64,000 nt of DNA from Spirochaetaceae bacterium (GTDB lineage Bacteria > Spirochaetota > Spirochaetia > DSM-2461). The DNA lies in NCBI GenBank assembly GCA_051531975.1, contig JAOPTT010000009.1:128001-192000 (forward strand), given 5' to 3'. A program made the position numbers and the translations under genes. Shown here in pieces: positions 44,436 through 54,438 of this stretch (position 1 is its first letter; each line of letters starts with the position of its first letter). Below the pieces are notes generated by a model that had not been told where the DNA came from, ran no database searches, and saw only the letters and a list, made by a program, of their open reading frames with translations.

Positions 44436-45023
44436 ATGAGTCCAGTAAAAGTCCCTACAAGAGATGAAGCTTTAGAGCTTTTTAAAAAATATAATAAAAC
44501 AGAGAGCCTTTTAAAACACGCTCTATCCGTAGAAGCTGTAATGCGATATATTGCAGCAAAATTAGGTGAGGATGTTGAACATTGGGGTATTATTGGCCTT
44601 GTTCATGATATTGATTACGAAATGTATCCAGATAAACATTGTATAAAATGTGAAGAGATACTAAATAAAAATAGTTGGCCAAAAGAGTATGTTAGATCAG
44701 TTGTTAGCCATGGTTGGGGCATTTGTTCTGATATTAAGCCAGAATCACTATTAGAAAAGTATCTATATACAATAGATGAACTTACAGGTCTTGTTGCAAC
44801 AACATCCCTTGTTAGACCTTCTAAAAGTGTATTGGATACCAAAGTTAAATCTGTAAAAAAGAAATGGAAAAACAAAAACTTTGCTGCAGGTGTTGATCGA
44901 TCTATAATTGAAAACGGAGCAGCTATTCTTGAACTTGAAATAGCAGATGTCATTGATCTAACTATAATGGGTATGAGAACAGCTGCAAAAGAGATTGGAC
45001 TAGAAGGAAATGTGGATATCTAG
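44436..45023 (+). CDS. HD-domain hydrolase (HDIG)
   Basis: LLKHALSVE, GLVHDIDYE, VVSHG, DELTG. Confidence 0.88.
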   Translation: MSPVKVPTRDEALELFKKYNKTESLLKHALSVEAVMRYIAAKLGEDVEHWGIIGLVHDIDYEMYPDKHCIKCEEILNKNSWPKEYVRSVVSHGWGICSDIKPESLLEKYLYTIDELTGLVATTSLVRPSKSVLDTKVKSVKKKWKNKNFAAGVDRSIIENGAAILELEIADVIDLTIMGMRTAAKEIGLEGNVDI

Positions 45024-47365
45024 TCCTTTTTTTTACCTCTGAATGTAGATATATAGTAAAGAATTATTAATATATCTATTTTTAGTATTTCGTCAGTAGA
45101 ATTTTCTGAATACTCCTCAGCCTGAGTTGTAAACCACCACCAGATTCCAGTCTTTTGATCCAGAGGAAATAGATGTTCTAAGTATGTCATCTCTTTATCA
45201 GAACTGTCCTTATCTAAGATGGTTCTGACTATAGTGATACTTGATATTTTAAGCATAGCAAAACATTCACTGTATTTATTTTCATCTAATAAAGCTTCTA
45301 TTTTTTTGAATCTTAAAACCAATCTTTTTCTGTTTTCTGCACTAAGTGAATTAGAACTACATTTAGATATCAGCTTTTCTGTATTTTTAATAACATCCGT
45401 AAATAGATGTTTAATATGTGTAGTTCTATTTGAATCTTTACCAGTTATATATTTATAAAATTCCCCAGGTTTCCCTAATAAGTTACCAATAGAAATAGCT
45501 AACTGCCTGGCTAATACTGGATTTAAAGAGCAGTGCATTTTGGGAATAATATCCCATACCGCTTCTAAAACACCAAGCTGAGATATTGCAACAGCTCCAG
45601 TAGCAGCAAGTTTATCAGATTTATTTTTGAATATATTTAATAAGTTCTTTATTGATTCATCGCTTCCTAACATCCCTAATGCTTTAACTGCAGCGGTTTG
45701 AAGTTCTTCGGATTCTGAATCTAAAGCTGAAAAAAGAACAGGTAGTGCACTCTCTGCACCTATCTTACCTAGGGCTAACGCAGCTTGACTTCGGATTGTT
45801 GAATTTTCATCCTTTACCTCGTTCATTAATGGTTCAACGGCCTCAAGGCTTCTAATTCTACCTAACGCTCTTGCTGCTTCCTCTCTAACTTCTGAGTCTG
45901 GATCGTATAGTCTACTTAAAATATCATCTAGAGCTATATCATCTGAATCACCATCTATTGCTCTTAAAGTTTTCTCTATTTTATTGGAACTTGTTGTACC
46001 ACTTAAAGTACCCATATTTGAGAAAGTTCTAAAAACACCAGGTCTAACAACACGACTTACAACAAATTTCAGAGGTTTACTCTTATTCTCTTTTACACTA
46101 GAAATTATTAACAGACCTATAACTATTAAAAATAGTGATAACAGAAGAATGATATGAATATTATTAACATGGAAACTATTAAAAATGGTTAGATCAATTC
46201 CCTCTGTCTTATCTTTTAACATCCCTCCGAAATAAGCTCCACCAGCTGATATTACCCCAACTATTGTCATATTCCAAGCAACAAAAGCTGTTCTGTTTTT
46301 ATCTGGAGTTAGGCTTAACATCATCTGGTTTATTCCATCCCATAAAGCAGGTGCTAATAAACCACTAGAGATAGCAATAAGTGGTAAAATAAATGTGTAG
46401 TTATTTGAAGTTAAAATAAAATAAAAAAGATTTGCAAAAGCAGATAAACATCCAATCATTAACACTGGTTTTCGACCAAACTTATCCATTATTAAACCCC
46501 ATGATGGAGATACTAATATCCAGGTTAACTGGGAGATTACAAACATTATACCTAACCATGTATTAGGTGCTGCTATAGCATCTTTAGCTGTAATATAAGG
46601 AGCTGTAAAAGGAGCAAATACTATAACTGCAAATACTGTAACACCTACTCCAACTGAAAAGAGTATGAAGTTTTTATTGGCTAATGGTTCTAAAAAATTA
46701 GTAAGAGACAATTTCTCTTTCTGTTTCTGTAAAGGTTCTGGAACAAATATAAACGCGATCATATCTGCTATTCCAGCAACTGAAGCTATTGAAAAAATTA
46801 CCCCATAGACAACAAAGATATTAACACTTGTCCATGTATCTAGAGCAACTGAACAACCCATAAACCAGATTATATTAACTATGTTTGATATAGATGAACG
46901 TTGGCCAAAAAATGTGGCTCTAATATTATCAGGGATAAGGTCCGCCATCCAACTCCACCAACCAGCACTACTTGAACTTGATAAAATATTACTAATAGCG
47001 GCACCTAAAAATACTATTTTTATGACCATGCTACTATCATTTGATCTAGCCATATAAAAACTGGTTATAGCTAACAACACACCTAAAAGTCTATGAATAA
47101 GATGCATGATTATAAAGTATTTTTTCCGTGTTTTTAGTTTTCCATAAACAATAATTCCCAATAAATTAAATAGAGTTGATAGCTGTACTATTCCAATTAA
47201 AATTCCTAATTGGCTAGAAGTTGCACCTAAATGATTTGTGAAAAAAACATTAAAAATCGGTTGTGGTGAACATACTGCAAACCAGATTGTAAACGCCCCA
47301 CCTCCAAATAAGTTTAACTTTAAAGATCTATTAAATTCTTTTTGTGAAATATTATTATTGTCCAT
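45020..47365 (-). CDS. MFS transporter fused to C-terminal HEAT repeats
   Basis: About 12 TM (WGLIMDKFGRK motif A), then repeats DPDSEVREEAARALG / DENSTIRSQAALALG / SESEELQTAAVKALG. Confidence 0.85.
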   Translation of the reverse strand: MDNNNISQKEFNRSLKLNLFGGGAFTIWFAVCSPQPIFNVFFTNHLGATSSQLGILIGIVQLSTLFNLLGIIVYGKLKTRKKYFIIMHLIHRLLGVLLAITSFYMARSNDSSMVIKIVFLGAAISNILSSSSSAGWWSWMADLIPDNIRATFFGQRSSISNIVNIIWFMGCSVALDTWTSVNIFVVYGVIFSIASVAGIADMIAFIFVPEPLQKQKEKLSLTNFLEPLANKNFILFSVGVGVTVFAVIVFAPFTAPYITAKDAIAAPNTWLGIMFVISQLTWILVSPSWGLIMDKFGRKPVLMIGCLSAFANLFYFILTSNNYTFILPLIAISSGLLAPALWDGINQMMLSLTPDKNRTAFVAWNMTIVGVISAGGAYFGGMLKDKTEGIDLTIFNSFHVNNIHIILLLSLFLIVIGLLIISSVKENKSKPLKFVVSRVVRPGVFRTFSNMGTLSGTTSSNKIEKTLRAIDGDSDDIALDDILSRLYDPDSEVREEAARALGRIRSLEAVEPLMNEVKDENSTIRSQAALALGKIGAESALPVLFSALDSESEELQTAAVKALGMLGSDESIKNLLNIFKNKSDKLAATGAVAISQLGVLEAVWDIIPKMHCSLNPVLARQLAISIGNLLGKPGEFYKYITGKDSNRTTHIKHLFTDVIKNTEKLISKCSSNSLSAENRKRLVLRFKKIEALLDENKYSECFAMLKISSITIVRTILDKDSSDKEMTYLEHLFPLDQKTGIWWWFTTQAEEYSENSTDEILKIDILIILYYISTFRGKKKD

Positions 47366-47417: not shown

Positions 47418-48320
47418 ATGACAAAAAAGAGTTTACTCATTATTTTCTGTTACTTAGCTATCTACCTAATTTGGGGAACTACATATTATTTCATAGCAAA
47501 AGCTGTAGAAACAATACCACCAAGTGTTGTGGTTTCTTTTAGATTTTTAGTAGGTGGACTTGTTATATTTTTAATACCAATACTCAGTGGGAAGATTAAA
47601 AGATTACCTACAAAACAAGAGGTTGGGACTTCAATATTTTTAGGATTTTTTCTACTTATTATGGGAAATGGAATAGTAACCTTTGCAGAGCAAACAATAG
47701 ATAGTTATATTGCGTCTCTAATAATTAGCACTGTTCCATTAATTATTGCTCTTATGAATATGATTATATTTAGAACAAAATTAAATTATAAACAGATCTT
47801 AGGTTTTTTTATCGGTTTTACTGGTGTTGCATTTTTACTCTATAACGATACTCCAAGAGATCCTGCAGAATTTCAGGGTATTTTGTTGCTGTTTTTAGCA
47901 ATTTTTTGCTGGGGTTTTGGAACAGTTTGGTCAAAAAAACTTACTCATCATTACGATACTTTTTTTTCCACTGGAATGCAGATGATTTTTGCAGGAATAA
48001 TAGCTTTTATTGTAACTATAATTCAGGGAGAAGATCTTAACCTCATTTTAAACAATAGCAGCCAACTCTCAATGTTCTCTGTACTGTTTTTAACCTTTGT
48101 TGGTGGTTCTGCTATTGGTGCTTATAATTATTTGTTAAAAAATCAACCAACAGGAAGGATCTCTAGTTACGCCCTAGTAAATCCGTTAATTGCGACTATT
48201 GTTGGACTATATATCGGTGGAGAGCAGCCAGCTAAGTATTTGTGGATAGGAATAATCCTTATTTTAACTGGCTTAGTATTCATGCTCTATTTAGCTAGAG
48301 TTAAAAAGCCTAAACTCTGA
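47418..48320 (+). CDS. EamA/DMT family transporter (YedA-like)
   Basis: AIYLIWGTTY, about 10 TM, SYALVNPLIA. Confidence 0.9.
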   Translation: MTKKSLLIIFCYLAIYLIWGTTYYFIAKAVETIPPSVVVSFRFLVGGLVIFLIPILSGKIKRLPTKQEVGTSIFLGFFLLIMGNGIVTFAEQTIDSYIASLIISTVPLIIALMNMIIFRTKLNYKQILGFFIGFTGVAFLLYNDTPRDPAEFQGILLLFLAIFCWGFGTVWSKKLTHHYDTFFSTGMQMIFAGIIAFIVTIIQGEDLNLILNNSSQLSMFSVLFLTFVGGSAIGAYNYLLKNQPTGRISSYALVNPLIATIVGLYIGGEQPAKYLWIGIILILTGLVFMLYLARVKKPKL

Positions 48321-49771
48321 TATAGTTCAAGAACTCTGTTATTTAATTCTTTATATAAATCTGTATTAAAACCTCTGGTTAGTTGGTTTGCAATATCGGA
48401 AATCAGGGAGTGTAAATCTTCATTCTGGTTAAAAAGAGGAATATAAATTTTATTTATAGTATTTGGTTGAGCAAAAGATTTTGCACCTTCTTCGTTTAAT
48501 AAATTAAGTTGACTTTTAAATATTTTAGAATTCATAATACCACAAAGGAAGTGTCCCTCTAGTTCTGTCTCTGTTGGAATATAACAATTCATGGACTGAT
48601 TTGGTATTGTATCGGTTGTAAGTGCTGCAACTAACTCTTTGGCTCCTAAACCTCTCCATACAACTTTATATTTTGCGCAAGTATATGGCCCAACTCCAAA
48701 TAGAGAGTACCAACACTTTTGGGCAAATCTAGATTTCCTATGTTCTAATTTTTCTCTAAAACCTGATAAATAATTATATGCAATAGGGTAGTTTGCCATC
48801 AAAGTTTCTTCAGGTATAAGTTTTCCATTTTTATACGGATATAATATCTGGTAACTAGGTTCGTAATTAAAGGGGTTTATATCAGAACTTTTTAGAAGTG
48901 GTTTTAATAATTTTGATTCGAAGGCTGGCTTTTCTTTAAAAAAGAAAACACTGTTTGCACCTAAGGTATTAACACCTTGTCTAGCTTTATATTCTGATGT
49001 TTGTAATATTGTCTGCCCTTGCTCTACTAAATCATCCCCAGCTTTTACTAATTTAATTATCCTGTTATTTACAATATACTTTATAGGAAACTTAGTTTTA
49101 CCACCATTTTTAGCTAAAATATAGAAGCAATTACGTGTTGTATTATTAAATGGATTATCATCACTAATATCGACAATGGACTCTACGACAATGTTTTGAA
49201 ATTTTCTAAAACCAGCAGATGCTGAATTACCTTTAATTAATGAGTTAGGAAGGATAACTCCAATTCGTCCACTGTTTTTTAAATATTGTTTTACTGTGAA
49301 TGCAAAAATTAATTGTGAAATATCCCCTCTACTATCACCTAGTAACATTTTAAAACCTTTTGATTCAGGAAAGTAAGATAACCATATAGGTTTTATCTTT
49401 TCTCGGTAATCTTCATCTAAGTCTGAAAAATTAATAAATGGAGGATTCCCAATATATAAATCACATTTTGGTATAGGGAATTTATCTAATAATATATCCC
49501 CTTTAAAGTAGTGTAAGTTTTTAATTCCTTTTATATCTTCTAGGACATTATTATAAATGGTCTCATTTTTTTCTATACCATAAAATTCAATTTCTTGGTT
49601 TTTTTTTGCTAGATCTATTAAAAAATTACATGAGCCTGCTGCAGAATCTATTACATGTTTAACATTATTAAGTTTAAAGTGAGAAGTTATTTTATTAACA
49701 ACATGAAGCTTAGTAAAAAATATCCCTTGCTTTAATCTAGTCTTTGAATCTATTTGGTTCTCTATATCCAT
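48287..49771 (-). CDS. DNA amino-methyltransferase (N6-adenine, gamma class; TaqI/Eco57I-like)
   Basis: GIFFT, motif I IDSAAGSCNF, motif IV IGNPPF, C-terminal TaqI_C-like target-recognition region. Confidence 0.82.
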   Translation of the reverse strand: MDIENQIDSKTRLKQGIFFTKLHVVNKITSHFKLNNVKHVIDSAAGSCNFLIDLAKKNQEIEFYGIEKNETIYNNVLEDIKGIKNLHYFKGDILLDKFPIPKCDLYIGNPPFINFSDLDEDYREKIKPIWLSYFPESKGFKMLLGDSRGDISQLIFAFTVKQYLKNSGRIGVILPNSLIKGNSASAGFRKFQNIVVESIVDISDDNPFNNTTRNCFYILAKNGGKTKFPIKYIVNNRIIKLVKAGDDLVEQGQTILQTSEYKARQGVNTLGANSVFFFKEKPAFESKLLKPLLKSSDINPFNYEPSYQILYPYKNGKLIPEETLMANYPIAYNYLSGFREKLEHRKSRFAQKCWYSLFGVGPYTCAKYKVVWRGLGAKELVAALTTDTIPNQSMNCYIPTETELEGHFLCGIMNSKIFKSQLNLLNEEGAKSFAQPNTINKIYIPLFNQNEDLHSLISDIANQLTRGFNTDLYKELNNRVLELYQSLGFLTLAK

Positions 49772-49846: not shown

Positions 49847-50482
49847 ATGATAGAGTACATATACGAAAATAATATTGATGATAGAGCAATTCGAAAGGCT
49901 TGTTTTATCCTGGATAAGGGTGGTTTAGTTGCATTTCCAACAGAGTCTAGTTGGTCCATTGGCTGCAGTATTAACTCAAAAGAGGGTCTAAAAAAGCTAA
50001 AAACCTTAAAAGGTGATAAAAAGATTAACTCCATAAGTATTTTGTGCTCAAATATTCAGCAGATACAAGAGATGGCTAATCTATCTAATAGTAACTTTAA
50101 ACTTATAAAACAGCATACTCCTGGACCATATGTATTTATTCTTCCCGCTAAAGCTAGAATAGAAAAAGTAATTAATATGAAAAGAGCAGAGGTTGGAGTA
50201 AGAATTCCTGGAAATAAAATTCCTTTTGCTCTGATTGCCCAACATGAACATCCACTATTTGTTATAACTGCAGCTAGAGAGATGACCGAAGGTGATAGTT
50301 GGGACTATACGTTTACAAGAGAGAATCTCTATACCCATGGTTGGGAAGTTGAAGATATCCCTGGTCTTGATCTGGTTTTAGATACTGGAGAAGAACTACA
50401 TACATATTTATCTACAGTGGTAAGACTTACAGAGGATGAACCAGAAATTATTAGAGAGGGAACGGGTTTTACTGAACTTTGA
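49847..50482 (+). CDS. yciO: Sua5/YciO/YrdC family protein (YciO-like)
   Basis: VAFPTES, TPGPYVFILPA, VGVRIPG, STVV, IIREG. Confidence 0.85.
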   Translation: MIEYIYENNIDDRAIRKACFILDKGGLVAFPTESSWSIGCSINSKEGLKKLKTLKGDKKINSISILCSNIQQIQEMANLSNSNFKLIKQHTPGPYVFILPAKARIEKVINMKRAEVGVRIPGNKIPFALIAQHEHPLFVITAAREMTEGDSWDYTFTRENLYTHGWEVEDIPGLDLVLDTGEELHTYLSTVVRLTEDEPEIIREGTGFTEL

Positions 50483-51855
50483 AAACATTTAAATTATTTC
50501 TTCTAATATTCATTATTTTTTTAATTGGAACTATGGGTTATGTGATAATAGAGGATTGGAGTGTATTTGACTCTTTTTATATGACTGCTATATCGATAAC
50601 CACCGTTGGTTTTGGTGAGACGAAACCCCTATCTGAAACGGGTAAAATTTTCACTGTTATATTGATATTTGTTGGACTTGGAGCAGCGGCTGTTTTTGCC
50701 TCCCATTTAGCTAAGGCATTTTTAGAAAATCATTTCAGAAACTTTTTTGGAGCAAGTAAAATGTTAAAAAAGATAAACCGATTAAAGGATCATTATATTA
50801 TATGTGGATATGGCGGTGTTGGTAGTGCTATTTGTACTACATTAAGCGATGCTGGAATAAAATTTGTTGTTGTAGAACAAGATGAGGATACAGCTGGATG
50901 GGCTGAGAAACGAAATTACATGACTGTTATTGGTAAAGCTACATACGATTCAACTCTTATTCAAGCAGGAATTAAAAACGCCAAAGGCATCGTTGTTAGT
51001 ATGGGAGACGATTCTCTTAATATGTTTGTTTCTTTAGCAGCAAGGGAGCTTAATCCTGATATATTTATTATTGCTAGAGGGTATAAAGCGGGAATTGAGG
51101 GCCGACTTGTAAGAGCTGGTGCAAATACTGTTGTTTATCCTATAAAAATGGGGGGAGAGCAGATTGCTCACCTAATAAAAAGACAACTTCACTCCACTGA
51201 TATTAAAGTTGAAGCTACTGGCCTAAGTAGCTCTGTAATGGGGTATAATCTTAAACTTTATAAACACTATAACGAAGATGAAGCAACAATAGCTGATGTT
51301 GTCAAAAGAATGAAAGCCTTAAATGCGGTCTCCTTAATTAAGAAAGGTCAAACCGATGAGATTACCAAACCAGAAGATGACTTAATTGTTCATCAGGATG
51401 ATAATGTTTTATTAGTAATCGAAGAGTACCAGAAAGAGGATCCAAAAGTTAAAGCGAACTCTCTGTTTTTCTGGAAAGAGAAATATGAACTTGGTTTAGA
51501 CCAGACTGATCTGGAACATAAAGAACTCTTTAAGATTAGTGCAGAATTTGTTGAAGCCGTTAAAAGTGGGGCAGAGAAAGATATTGTAACTCGATGTTTT
51601 AATAGATTATTAGATCAAACTATTGAGCACTTTGATAACGAAGAAAAACTATTTACACAGTATAATTATGATGATAAAAAGCATCATCTAATAACTCATA
51701 AAAAGTTATTAACTAGTTTAAATAGTATAAATAAAAATAGAGATTATAACTTTAGTTTAGGTGTAGAGGAGTTCTTGTTTAAAAACCAGGTTTCTCATAT
51801 TCTAGAAGAAGACAAAAAATTTGTAGATTATGTAAAGGAGAATTTCCATGGCTAA
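50479..51855 (+). CDS. 2-TM potassium channel with RCK (TrkA-N) domain and C-terminal bacteriohemerythrin domain
   Basis: Filter TTVGFGE; HYIICGYGGVG; C-terminal W...Y.LG...D.EH, HFDNEE, HLITH, HILEED. Confidence 0.9.
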   Translation: MKTFKLFLLIFIIFLIGTMGYVIIEDWSVFDSFYMTAISITTVGFGETKPLSETGKIFTVILIFVGLGAAAVFASHLAKAFLENHFRNFFGASKMLKKINRLKDHYIICGYGGVGSAICTTLSDAGIKFVVVEQDEDTAGWAEKRNYMTVIGKATYDSTLIQAGIKNAKGIVVSMGDDSLNMFVSLAARELNPDIFIIARGYKAGIEGRLVRAGANTVVYPIKMGGEQIAHLIKRQLHSTDIKVEATGLSSSVMGYNLKLYKHYNEDEATIADVVKRMKALNAVSLIKKGQTDEITKPEDDLIVHQDDNVLLVIEEYQKEDPKVKANSLFFWKEKYELGLDQTDLEHKELFKISAEFVEAVKSGAEKDIVTRCFNRLLDQTIEHFDNEEKLFTQYNYDDKKHHLITHKKLLTSLNSINKNRDYNFSLGVEEFLFKNQVSHILEEDKKFVDYVKENFHG

Positions 51856-52108
51856 TGTTGTTATGTATTCAAAAAAAGTATGTCCATATTGTGTTAGAGC
51901 AAAAGGATTGTTAAAAGCTAAAGGTGTGGAAGTTGTAGAGATTTCTATAGAAGGCGATATTTCAAAAAGAGAAGAGATGTTATCAAAATCTAATGGTGCT
52001 ATGACAGTTCCACAAATATTTATTGATGATTTTCATGTTGGTGGATGTGATGATCTATTTGCCTTAGAAGCTAAAGGTGAGCTTAATAAACTACTTTCCG
52101 TTTCTTAA
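51848..52108 (+). CDS. grxC: Glutaredoxin 3
   Basis: CPYC, TVPQIFI, GGCDDL. Confidence 0.95.
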   Translation: MANVVMYSKKVCPYCVRAKGLLKAKGVEVVEISIEGDISKREEMLSKSNGAMTVPQIFIDDFHVGGCDDLFALEAKGELNKLLSVS

Positions 52109-52865
52109 AAATCTGTGTAAAAAATCGTAAAAAGACTTTTCTATTTGTAAGCCATTGAATTGAGACACCGTTTTTACTGTTTTTTAACATGGCTTTAACT
52201 AGAAATAATGAAACATCTTCTACCCTATCTGCTAGGATGTTATATATTTTTATTACTTTATCTTTCTCATTTTTATCTTCAGGTAGAGAGGATAAAAGTA
52301 GATCGGTAACTACCATTCCCGGACTTAACAGACCTATTTTTACATTGCTACCTTTGACCTCTTTTGCTGCAGATTTTGTAAAGTAGGTTAGTGCTCTTTT
52401 TGTCATACCATAGAAGCTCATATTAGCTGTCATCATGTCGTTACTTCCATAACCTTCCATATTATAGATATAACCACCTTTTTCTGACATTCCTCTGCTG
52501 GCTATTTGTGTTCCATAAAGAACAGCCTTAATATTTAGATCTATTATCTGATTCATTTTATTAAGATCATGGTCAGTTACTGACTGTCTATTTTGACTCA
52601 TCCCTGCATTATTAATCCAGATATCTACAGAACCAAAATATCTATTTGCTTCCCAAAACATTCTAGATACAGAGTTATAACATGTTACATCACAGGCGTA
52701 AACATGAATAAAGTTACCTGGGAATTCGGTACTTAGTTTCCCTGCAACTGTGGATGCAACCATTCTATCTCGGCCATTAATCAGAACATTATGACCATGT
52801 TTTAAGAACTCTCTAACAAGTCCTAAACCAATTCCTCGGGTGCTACCAGTAATTACTACATTCAT
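52083..52865 (-). CDS. Short-chain dehydrogenase/reductase
   Basis: TGSTRGIG, WINNAG, YGMTK. Confidence 0.92.
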   Translation of the reverse strand: MNVVITGSTRGIGLGLVREFLKHGHNVLINGRDRMVASTVAGKLSTEFPGNFIHVYACDVTCYNSVSRMFWEANRYFGSVDIWINNAGMSQNRQSVTDHDLNKMNQIIDLNIKAVLYGTQIASRGMSEKGGYIYNMEGYGSNDMMTANMSFYGMTKRALTYFTKSAAKEVKGSNVKIGLLSPGMVVTDLLLSSLPEDKNEKDKVIKIYNILADRVEDVSLFLVKAMLKNSKNGVSIQWLTNRKVFLRFFTQIFKKRKVVY

Positions 52866-53076
52866 ACTAACTCCTACTATTAACTATATGTTCAAAACTA
52901 TAATTAGTAAAACTGTTTTTGATACTACTTTGTATAGCTTTAAATGGATCTTATTAAAAATTATTGACTACTACTTTAATCACAATTATGAATTATATAT
53001 AGGATATGAAAAAAGTTTGATTAAAAGAGAGGAATATAAAAACAGTATTAACATACATAAAACATGGAGAGTTCAG

Positions 53077-54438
53077 ATGAAAAAGTTCGATATTATAATA
53101 ATAGGTACAGGTCAGGCAACAGGTATAATAATGCCAGAACTATTAAAAGGAAATCTAAATATAGCAGTTATTGAATGTGATAAAGCTGGGGGTACATGTG
53201 TTAATTGGGGTTGTACACCTACAAAAACTTTAATTGCTAGTTCCAGGGCTGCCTATATGGCAAAAAGAGGAGCCGATTTTGGTGTTGATATCAGTGAGTT
53301 TAAGATTAATTTTACTAAGGTAATGCATAGAGTGAACAGTATAAGAGTTCCAGCTACTGATGGTTATAAAAGCTGGCTTAGTTCTGTTGCAACCTATTAC
53401 CAATTTGAAGCAAAATTTGTTGATGACCATAAAATACAGGTTGGGGAAGAGATAATCTATGGAGATAAAATAATTATCCACACTGGAACTAGGTCTAGAG
53501 TTCCAAAAATACCTGGTATTGATACTGTGCCATGGTTAGATAATAAGGGTATATTAGCATTAAAAGAGTTACCTAAACATCTTATTGTTATTGGTACTTC
53601 TTACATCGGTTTAGAGTTTGGTCAGGCTTTTTCTAGGTTAGGAAGCAAAATCTCAGTTCTTGGAATAGGAGGTAGAATACTATCTAGAGAAGATCCAGAT
53701 ATTAGTAGTATAGCTTATGATATACTAAATGATGAAGGTTTAGAGTTTCATCTAGAATCAAGTATACAATCAATGGAGAAATCCTCCATAGGGGTAAAAA
53801 TCCACTATATTCAAGATGGTATAGATAAAGTTATGGAGGGTTCACACATCCTCTTTGCCATTGGTCGAGTTCCTAATAGCGATGGTTTAGATCTTCCTAA
53901 AGCTGGAGTAAAAGTTGATAAAAGAGGTTTTATAGAAGTTGATGACTATACTCAGACAAATATTCCACACATTTATGCAATAGGCGATGTAAATGGCCAG
54001 GGTGCTTTTACCCATACGTCTGTACATGATGGCCAGGTTTTTACTGAACACTTAAGTGGAGGAACTAGAAAAATAAGTGATAGGATTCCTATTCATTCCA
54101 TGTTTATGGATCCACCTTTAGCCAGGGTTGGGTTAACCCAAACGGAAGCTATGACTACAGGGAAAAATGTAATGATGGCTACTAAAAAAATGAGTACTAT
54201 TAGTAGAGCACAAGAGAAGGATGAAACAAAAGGACTTATTAAACTATTAATAGATGTTGATACCAAATTAATACTAGGAGCCACAATTTTAGGTGTTGGA
54301 GGGGATGAGATAATAGGTATGGTTGCCCTTGCTATGATAGCCAAACTTCCTTATACCGTTTTACAAGAGACCGTTTTACCACATCCAACTGTATCTGAAC
54401 TAATACCATGGATATTTAACGATCTACAAAAAGTATAA
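53077..54438 (+). CDS. Class I pyridine nucleotide-disulfide oxidoreductase (MerA/RclA/Lpd-like)
   Basis: ATG 53077 after GGAG; IIGTGQA, GGTCVNWGCTPTK, AIGDV, HPTVSE; no C-terminal Cys pair. Confidence 0.88.
   Translation: MKKFDIIIIGTGQATGIIMPELLKGNLNIAVIECDKAGGTCVNWGCTPTKTLIASSRAAYMAKRGADFGVDISEFKINFTKVMHRVNSIRVPATDGYKSWLSSVATYYQFEAKFVDDHKIQVGEEIIYGDKIIIHTGTRSRVPKIPGIDTVPWLDNKGILALKELPKHLIVIGTSYIGLEFGQAFSRLGSKISVLGIGGRILSREDPDISSIAYDILNDEGLEFHLESSIQSMEKSSIGVKIHYIQDGIDKVMEGSHILFAIGRVPNSDGLDLPKAGVKVDKRGFIEVDDYTQTNIPHIYAIGDVNGQGAFTHTSVHDGQVFTEHLSGGTRKISDRIPIHSMFMDPPLARVGLTQTEAMTTGKNVMMATKKMSTISRAQEKDETKGLIKLLIDVDTKLILGATILGVGGDEIIGMVALAMIAKLPYTVLQETVLPHPTVSELIPWIFNDLQKV

Follow-up and report, generated by a model that had tools for sequence, protein, structure and literature searches.

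The subject of this study is a gene in a 64,000-nucleotide stretch of the genome of a Spirochaetaceae bacterium (GenBank assembly GCA_051531975.1, contig JAOPTT010000009.1, positions 128,001 to 192,000 of the forward strand); the whole of this stretch is called the window below. The gene, at 50479..51855 (+), is one intact open reading frame (ORF) of 458 amino acids (aa), the longest at the site, and it joins a potassium channel with two transmembrane helices (2TM) and an RCK domain to a bacteriohemerythrin. We read the product as a tetrameric, K+-selective, RCK-gated channel in which each RCK domain carries a C-terminal bacteriohemerythrin as a built-in O2/redox sensor, and give this reading a probability of about 0.6. 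By analogy with other hemerythrin proteins we infer, on good grounds, that O2 or the redox state would gate the pore. The protein can be placed among the RCK-gated K+ channels, where its sensor is new, or just as well among the hemerythrin sensors, where its output is new; the fusion is genuine and conserved, and it is uncharacterised. More than 100 proteins share the fused architecture; they belong to bacteria of several phyla, mostly anaerobic ones.

A preliminary description of this DNA knew of no characterised channel with this architecture, and indeed no description of a hemerythrin-bearing K+ channel was found in the full-text literature, though the S2 figure of a survey of hemerythrin architectures from 2016 might list it (PMC4919030). 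The main text of that survey does not name the fusion; its S2 Fig covers 56 architectures. The characterised hemerythrin fusions given in passages of a 2022 review are those with MCP, GGDEF, HD-GYP and P1B-5-ATPase alone (PMC9388753), and the review contains neither the word “channel” nor the word “potassium”. The fused sequences are already in public databases under generic names, their source names being “bacteriohemerythrin” or “voltage-gated potassium channel”. New here are the missing Ca2+ triad, the nucleotide motif of the GsuK type, an internal Met95 with a GGAG, and sister proteins which bear a receiver domain.

Pore, RCK domain and hemerythrin

With the whole protein as query the Pfam profile Ion_trans_2 (PF07885) matches residues 9-81 with 59.1 bits (cut-off 22.5, E 4e-16) and TrkA_N (PF02254) matches residues 106-221 with 101.7 bits (cut-off 23.8, E 3.9e-29). 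The hemerythrin domain profile TIGR02481 of NCBIfam matches residues 332-451 with 73.8 bits (cut-off 51.75), and the Pfam profile Hemerythrin (PF01814) reaches 28.1 bits on the C-terminal 131 residues alone, which exceeds its cut-off of 25.3. The Pfam scan for Ion_trans_2, TrkA_N and Hemerythrin proposed in the preliminary description thus finds all three domains, the last just under the Pfam cut-off in the whole protein and above the cut-off of TIGR02481. The RCK part also has weak matches to KefC/KefB in NCBIfam; residues 220-334, the region of the RCK C-lobe, have no meaningful match in Pfam or NCBIfam.

The motifs can be read directly: the filter T41TVGFGE47, the glycine motif G110YGGVG115 of the RCK domain, and EH347KE, H384FDNE388, H403LITH407 and H440ILEED445 in the hemerythrin. 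The ligand pattern is H-HxxxE-HxxxH-HxxxxD with one set per helix, H347 in the helix 341-362, H384/E388 in 367-394, H403/H407 in 400-416 and H440/D445 in 429-455. A 2TM pore with the filter TTVGFG (T41-G46), an RCK/TrkA-N domain with GYGGVG (G110-G115) and a hemerythrin with all seven canonical iron ligands had been claimed from the letters, and each of them is borne out, the pore also by TM1, a pore helix and TM2 in the structure model. The hemerythrin had been placed from about 51466; this is residue 330, and the profile match begins at residue 332.

A whole-chain AlphaFold2 (AF2) model was built from an alignment of 41 homologues. Its mean predicted local distance difference test (pLDDT) is 86.6 and its predicted TM-score (pTM) just 0.52, and because of the latter the placement of the domains relative to each other is unreliable. 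The model has TM1 at residues 2-25, a pore helix at 29-41, an inner helix at 53-100, an RCK N-lobe of alternating beta and alpha elements at 106-238, a C-lobe at about 252-315 and four long helices at 341-455. When the whole model was compared with known structures by Foldseek, full-length MthK (6oly) came first (E 2.5e-17, about 322 columns, identity 21-23%), followed by GsuK and KtrA. The preliminary description spoke of a short RCK-C-like stretch. Its RCK-C nature is upheld by the fold, its shortness is not, since the beta strands run across 256-315 and the 322-column alignment spans full-length MthK; by fold alone residues 252-315 are, in the model, a complete RCK peripheral subdomain. Modelled by itself, the hemerythrin domain reaches pLDDT 93.1 and pTM 0.86, and the best 14 fold matches in the PDB are all hemerythrins, led by the DcrH domain (2avk with TM 0.84, 2awc with TM 0.85; root-mean-square deviation 2.0-2.3 A, 2.0 A for 2avk) and the Methylococcus bacteriohemerythrin McHr (4xpx, TM 0.85).

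In sequence, the best PDB match for the protein's N-terminal two thirds is GsuK (E 2e-22, with RCK2 as the best stretch), then MthK (E 5e-20, residues 5-231), and the closest PDB sequence to the hemerythrin tail is the DcrH hemerythrin domain (E 3.6e-8). With MthK of Methanothermobacter (1lnq, 6oly) the protein shares a 2TM pore, a TVG[YF]G filter, the hinge glycine (G66, aligned to G83 of MthK), one RCK with N- and C-lobe per subunit, and a Met at a distance of 10 residues ahead of the HxxICG strand, which in MthK is the start of the soluble RCK. It differs from MthK in having no Ca2+ triad and in having a GxGxxG motif and a C-terminal hemerythrin. The multi-ligand K+ channel GsuK of Geobacter sulfurreducens (4gx0, 4gx2) is related mainly through its RCK2 with GxGxxG...D/E; each of its chains contains two RCK domains in tandem and lacks a hemerythrin, whereas the present chain has one RCK plus, probably, a soluble copy.

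On the sensor side the nearest relative is the chemoreceptor DcrH of Desulfovibrio vulgaris (2avk, 2awc, 2awy), likewise a signalling protein in the membrane of an anaerobe, whose C-terminal cytoplasmic bacteriohemerythrin has these seven ligands too. The output of DcrH is a chemoreceptor signalling domain acting through CheA/CheY; here it is an ion pore. The Kef systems are of the antiporter type and are gated by glutathione adducts. KefC/KefB and YugO of Bacillus subtilis resemble the present protein in that RCK/KTN domains regulate a K+ flux which serves as a stress or signalling response; YugO, in the passages of its description used here, has no metal sensor domain (PMC3667857, bioRxiv 553305). 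In Bhr-DGC of Vibrio cholerae and Bhr-HD-GYP of Ferrovum a hemerythrin acts as the redox switch of a fused output domain; according to passages of the 2022 review the diferrous forms are active and the diferric forms much less active or inactive, and the change is reversible (PMC9388753). Unlike here, these two carry the hemerythrin at the N-terminus, and soluble c-di-GMP enzymes form their outputs. The P1B-5-ATPase has the sole characterised hemerythrin-type domain on a membrane ion-transport protein mentioned in those passages (PMC9388753); it is an ATP-driven metal pump with the ligands H-HxxxE-HxE-HxxxxD.

Spread and ancestry of the fusion

A search of a protein collection gave 656 relatives at E<=1e-5, and the conservation counts given here rest on 120 listed of the 656, ranked by full-length score. 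The three Pfam domains (PF01814+PF02254+PF07885) are found together in 97 of the 120, and a family-specific hidden Markov model finds the hemerythrin in 103, a number which excludes P0002, that is, the protein of the window itself as called from a later start. The other 17 are 15 short proteins (295-348 aa) which end after the RCK C-lobe and two, P0120 and P0121, in which residues 337-450, the very place of the hemerythrin, are a receiver domain of the response-regulator type. The two latter proteins apparently represent a K+ channel gated by two-component phosphorylation, and their receiver marks the channel C-terminus as a putative site for input modules.

The homologues come, among others, from Maridesulfovibrio salexigens, M. 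zosterae, M. ferrireducens and Desulfovibrio inopinatus, and from metagenome-assembled genomes (MAGs) of Spirochaetales and Fibrobacteria. It could be suspected that the fusion is an artefact of assembly or gene calling, by which a channel and a hemerythrin encoded separately were joined: the assembly is metagenome-derived, and the sole sequencing run that contains the stretch may be its own source. No RNA run was listed as containing the stretch, and the RNA run of that possible source sample matches next to nothing of it. The gene is a single open frame, however, and the census of relatives suggested earlier turned up the hemerythrin in 103 of the 120 homologues, far more than chance would give; their origins are many and independent, with complete chromosomes and cultured, named species among them. 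The chance that an artefact explains the fusion is negligible, and the explanation was rejected on the ground that the same fusion exists in independent homologues across phyla.

The residues expected to matter are strongly conserved. In the filter, T42 is found in 119 of the 120 homologues, G44 in all, F or Y at position 45 in all, G46 in 114 and E47 in all; the glycine at the hinge position, G66, is found in 119. Iron ligands are conserved among the 103 hemerythrin-bearing proteins, some rows of which are truncated, as follows: H347 in 102, H384 in 103, E388 in 100, H403 in 95, H407 in 102, H440 in 101 and D445 in 101. W332 at the start of the hemerythrin N-terminal loop is invariant, and the hemerythrin surface includes a loop specific to the family, LNxx[KR]xYxF.

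In species-representative genomes 12 loci were found at which the match reaches the hemerythrin part. They belong to Spirochaetia/Spirochaetales/Sediminispirochaeta, Maridesulfovibrio, Desulfovibrionaceae, Humidesulfovibrio, Fibrobacteraceae and a Myxococcales MAG. All seven iron ligands are invariant at 12/12 loci, and at 10/12 the gene is intact with three domains by Pfam; in L001 the hemerythrin falls below the Pfam threshold, yet every ligand is kept. The Humidesulfovibrio copy (L035, 3857-5339) is split inside the RCK into two overlapping frames of 221 and 303 aa, which would be due to a frameshift or a sequencing error. In the Myxococcales MAG (L020, 3200-5485, +) the longest ORF has 761 aa, with about 270 extra N-terminal residues without a Pfam match, and may be over-extended or contain a further domain.

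In the tree of the pore-RCK part the query stands in a well-supported clade of 21 rows, 15 of them fused and 6 without hemerythrin. A separate tree of the hemerythrin domain has a clade of 14 rows (SH-aLRT 95) made up of those fused members apart from P0012, which is truncated. Because the hemerythrin clade matches the fused members of the channel clade, the trees indicate that both halves are inherited together in the query's clade. The short forms in this clade are most simply explained as secondary losses, and some of the hemerythrin-less short forms sit on contigs of 118 kb to 3 Mb. It should be noted that the sample for the channel tree was ranked by full-length score, which favours fused forms; the tree is read for nested loss in the query's clade and not for the ancestral state of the family. 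A branch with a weak support of 62 sets the fused hemerythrins apart from six further hemerythrin domains encoded elsewhere in the window's genome.

Putative gating ring, nucleotide motif and proposed mechanism

The preliminary description called the channel MthK-like. This holds for the architecture; it does not hold for the Ca2+ site, the triad of which is missing, nor for the nucleotide motif, which is of the GsuK RCK2 type. In the MthK alignment the Ca2+ ligands D184/E210/E212 are S174/R200/Y202 in the query, and in the family the D184 column is C or S in 115/120 homologues, the E210 column R or Q in 116/120, and the E212 column is acidic in 14/120 and mostly Y, S or T. An ordinary Ca2+-gated MthK orthologue with an extra tail might be read from the fact that full-length MthK is the best fold match and a strong PDB sequence match. 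The three ligand columns argue against it, as does the Rossmann GxGxxG which the family has and MthK does not, and we regard it as very improbable; Ca2+ gating via the MthK site was rejected since the ligand triad is not conserved.

The RCK domain carries the nucleotide motif GxGxxG...D/E, as in GsuK RCK2, KtrA and TrkA, with G110 in 120/120 homologues, G112 in 117/120, G115 in 116/120 and E or D at position 133 in 120/120. On these motifs the channel should be filed with the nucleotide-type RCK channels, and it is MthK-like in architecture alone. According to passages of the GsuK study, RCK2 of GsuK binds the adenine of ADP and of NAD+ via this motif and both ligands activate GsuK (PMC3510474). 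Because it has the GsuK RCK2 motif, the channel probably integrates a nucleotide signal too.

MthK makes four extra soluble RCK domains from the internal start Met107, which complete an octameric ring, as stated in the part of its description used here (PMC2154359). In the present protein Met95 lies 10 residues before His105 of HYIICG, and in MthK Met107 lies equally 10 residues before the His of HVVICG. Position 95 is Met in 109/120 homologues, the others having L (5), V (4), A (1) and I (1). In the window a GGAG and an 8-nt spacer precede the ATG of Met95. A GGAG is found 8-10 nt upstream of Met95 in 9/12 genes, against a background of 0.06-0.20 of the codon positions in the same genes, and in L019, L020 and L063 it is encoded via different amino acids; it is missing in three Desulfovibrionaceae genes of the 12 examined. 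The conserved Met95, the GGAG and the position equal to that of MthK Met107 suggest that a soluble RCK-hemerythrin subunit is co-translated from Met95, in which case the complete channel would have up to eight di-iron centres.

The mechanism which we propose is as follows. The gating ring would consist of eight RCK-hemerythrin units, four tethered to the pore and four soluble ones from the internal Met95, as in MthK from Met107. In a reduced, anoxic cytoplasm the di-iron sites would be diferrous. In passages of the 2022 review bacterial hemerythrin sensor domains are described as binding O2 at Fe2 and autoxidising quickly, the characterised sensors as being regulated by the redox state and not by ligand binding, and the N-terminal loop of DcrH-Hr as ordered in the met form and disordered in the deoxy form (PMC9388753). 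In the channel this loop, which starts with W332, would directly continue the linker from the RCK C-lobe, and because it follows the linker directly, oxidation would alter the hold of the domain against the ring. A redox-dependent ordering of the loop may thus change the seating of the domain on the ring and shift the ring between closed and open. An adenine nucleotide at GxGxxG...E133, of the NAD+/ADP type as in GsuK RCK2, would be a second input. With respect to direction, we make the guess, hardly better than even, that the oxidised state raises the open probability, because the “oxidised/low-energy” ligands NAD+ and ADP open GsuK; O2 or an oxidant would then give a K+ flux and a change of membrane potential within seconds.

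Taken in full, as a directly O2/redox-gated K+ channel with eight di-iron sensors on four tethered and four internally initiated subunits and with an NAD+/ADP-type co-signal, in which O2 is turned into a fast change of K+ flux and potential, the mechanism is a tentative proposal, and we would not bet on all its parts together. Outputs can only be speculated on: a shift in potential might affect flagellar motors driven by the proton motive force, and with them motility or aerotaxis, it might act on spirochaete chemotaxis, or the K+ movement might be protective in a Kef-like way. Membrane potential is reportedly involved in chemotaxis of Spirochaeta aurantia.

Several observations weigh against a hemerythrin that senses O2 and gates the pore. 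The channel evidently works without it: hemerythrin-less forms are far commoner, and some nest beside P0014 within the fused clade. The fusion is rare relative to the plain channel. Within an even sample of 300 other Spirochaetota genomes a channel-RCK match (E<=1e-40) was found in 67, and in none of the 300 does a channel match extend into a hemerythrin; as a positive control, the genome search recovered full-length matches in 5/5 cases. Among 151 Desulfovibrionaceae genomes, including the centre of the search, the channel match (E<=1e-60) was found in 85 and the full-length fusion in 7 (6 of the 150 others), three of these 7 matches being reported with one in-frame stop; all 7 genomes also have a hemerythrin-less paralogue. 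The linker between RCK and hemerythrin is 9-45 residues long (median 17) among the 103 hemerythrin-bearing homologues, it is poorly conserved and modelled with low confidence, and no rigid path for coupling RCK and hemerythrin is visible in the model. The identities of the two halves correlate moderately (Spearman 0.40). In the whole protein PF01814 matches residues 340-450 with 24.2 bits, just below its cut-off of 25.3, and the bacteriohemerythrin profile NF033749 of NCBIfam gives 75.3 bits against a cut-off of 84. Seven of the 103 fused proteins have Gln at the position of H403, which could mark a subgroup with an altered chemistry of the metal site. No gene neighbour is conserved across the 12 loci, so that the neighbourhood indicates no physiological role.

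Because the linker varies and nested lineages no longer have the domain, the hemerythrin looks like a modulatory add-on and not like an obligatory gate. The same two facts, together with the almost invariant GxGxxG...D/E motif and the common hemerythrin-less relatives which coexist as paralogues, would also suit a channel whose gating is controlled at the RCK nucleotide site (NAD+/NADH, ADP/ATP) and whose hemerythrin is passive, being a local O2 scavenger that shields the channel or the membrane, an aid to oligomerisation or a relic. We find this improbable, since all seven ligands persist between phyla although overall identity is 25-70%, which argues for selection for a working metal site, and since the sister proteins have a receiver, a dedicated signalling module, at the same position; moreover all characterised fused hemerythrins treated in the passages of the 2022 review regulate their partner (PMC9388753).

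It is also conceivable that the hemerythrin senses another signal, for example cytoplasmic iron or nitric oxide (NO), and that the K+ flux is coupled to iron or NO status. These ligands cannot be told apart by sequence alone. The hemerythrin domain of FBXL5 senses iron availability. For the hemerythrin-like domain of the P1B-5-ATPase, passages of the 2022 review leave it unclear whether O2/redox or iron is sensed (PMC9388753), and this counts against an O2 sensor here as well. Nevertheless we hold such a ligand to be unlikely: the ligand set is the canonical O2-binding H-HxxxE-HxxxH-HxxxxD and not the HxE variant of the P1B-5-ATPases, the closest relative in both sequence and fold is the O2-reactive DcrH domain, and most carriers are anaerobes, to which O2 would be the signal one expects first.

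It has long been asked how ion channels sense oxygen. In animals the known O2-sensitive K+ channels seem to do so indirectly. If the domain described here binds O2, it would be a spectroscopically visible di-iron sensor placed covalently on a small channel, so that the redox state could be set and read during a recording; both redox states could be solved structurally, and the reading of a protein-borne signal by an RCK ring could be compared with that of a small ligand. If an O2/redox sensor of this kind gates the channel, anaerobes would gain a fast oxygen response independent of transcription, and motile anaerobes such as spirochaetes and Desulfovibrionaceae an electrical route to aerotaxis or to the response to oxidative stress, parallel to the chemoreceptor route of DcrH. 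Ion flux and membrane potential would then join the outputs of hemerythrin sensors, for which passages of the 2022 review give chemotaxis, turnover of c-di-GMP and, possibly, the pumping of metals (PMC9388753). The sisters with a receiver domain suggest that signal modules can be plugged into this channel chassis at a general site. Homologues in named Maridesulfovibrio and Desulfovibrio species should make the idea directly testable.

Gene coordinates, neighbouring genes and host

The coordinates are collected in Table 1. The start codon TTG is the first start after the preceding in-frame stop. The public gene call P0002 (440 aa; the same protein) begins at Met19, which removes most of TM1 (window 50479-50535). 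Since the alignment with homologues begins at residue 1, the likelier start is the TTG at 50479, in overlap with the stop of the upstream gene.

Table 1. The channel gene, its parts and the adjoining genes, in positions of the window
Feature	Position	Strand	Basis or remark
Whole gene, 2TM K+ channel - RCK - bacteriohemerythrin	50479..51855	+	TTG start; stop 51853-51855; AF2 mean pLDDT 86.6
TM1, outer transmembrane helix, residues 2-25	50482..50553	+	AF2 helix H2-25; Ion_trans_2 match 9-81
Pore helix and selectivity filter T41-T-V-G-F-G-E47	50563..50619	+	sequence; conservation in homologues
TM2, inner helix and cytoplasmic extension, residues 53-100, including Gly66	50635..50778	+	AF2 helix H53-100; MthK alignment
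Candidate internal start: GGAG 50749-50752, 8-nt spacer, Met95 ATG 50761-50763	50749..50763	+	predicted soluble product 50761-51855
RCK N-lobe, Rossmann, residues 105-238; G110-x-G112-x-x-G115 (50806-50823), E133 (50875-50877)	50791..51192	+	TrkA_N E 3.9e-29
RCK C-lobe, peripheral subdomain, residues 252-315	51232..51423	+	beta-rich AF2 fold, pLDDT 87-92; Foldseek alignment to MthK
Linker, variable, low confidence, residues 316-331	51424..51471	+	pLDDT <50 at 318-320
Bacteriohemerythrin, residues 332-455: N-terminal loop with W332 and four-helix bundle	51472..51843	+	TIGR02481; domain model
Fe ligands H347, H384, E388, H403	51517-51519, 51628-51630, 51640-51642, 51685-51687	+	sequence
Fe ligands H407, H440, D445	51697-51699, 51796-51798, 51811-51813	+	sequence
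Upstream gene, YciO/TsaC-type L-threonylcarbamoyladenylate synthase family	49847..50482	+	its TGA stop overlaps the TTG start of the channel
Downstream gene, glutaredoxin 3	51848..52108	+	ATG overlaps the last codons of the channel by 8 nt; preceded by AGGAG within the channel gene

The overlap of its ATG and the AGGAG before it make it probable that glutaredoxin 3 is co-translated with the channel. In the window at 51848-54438 glutaredoxin 3 is followed by a divergent short-chain dehydrogenase/reductase (SDR) and then by a class-I FAD disulfide oxidoreductase; the best model for the latter is of the PRK06370 type and below its cut-off, and the longest ORF has about 80 extra N-terminal residues. 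This stretch may be a thiol-redox locus. A glutaredoxin and an SDR are also found near the channel in L001, the closest genomic relative, and not in L002 or nine further loci; the linkage to glutaredoxin is limited to the window and, loosely, L001. At other loci the neighbours are an amino acid permease-Usp protein, CheX plus a receiver, MFS, DNA alkylation repair, TetR, HD-GYP-type and GGDEF proteins. Because the loci have no common neighbour, the channel protein looks like a self-contained one-component device.

The genome has 5.46 Mb in 29 contigs and is 98.5% complete. It contains nine further hemerythrin-region matches, including two chemoreceptors of the type MCP-CZB-hemerythrin, and one unrelated Slo-like RCK channel. 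The two chemoreceptor loci (L005, 25-1923 +, and L006, 337-1902 +, in genome G000) encode an MCP signalling domain, a zinc-binding CZB domain and a C-terminal hemerythrin and are DcrH-like with an added CZB; their ORFs run off the 5' end of the locus. Genes for cytochrome bd subunit I, a pyruvate:ferredoxin oxidoreductase (PFOR) of 1197 aa and several rubrerythrins are present, and a heme-copper oxidase was not found in the genome. This gene content fits an oxygen-exposed anaerobe, in line with the probable anaerobe of the preliminary description.

Two further genes on the opposite strand of the window deserve mention. The one at 45020-47365 (-) encodes a protein of 781 aa with an MFS-type membrane domain and C-terminal repeats of the HEAT/PBS-lyase type, which is an unusual pairing. 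The other, at 48287-49771 (-), encodes an N6-adenine DNA methylase of 494 aa with Eco57I-type and TaqI_C matches, and it overlaps the end of an EamA transporter gene on the opposite strand by about 30 nt.

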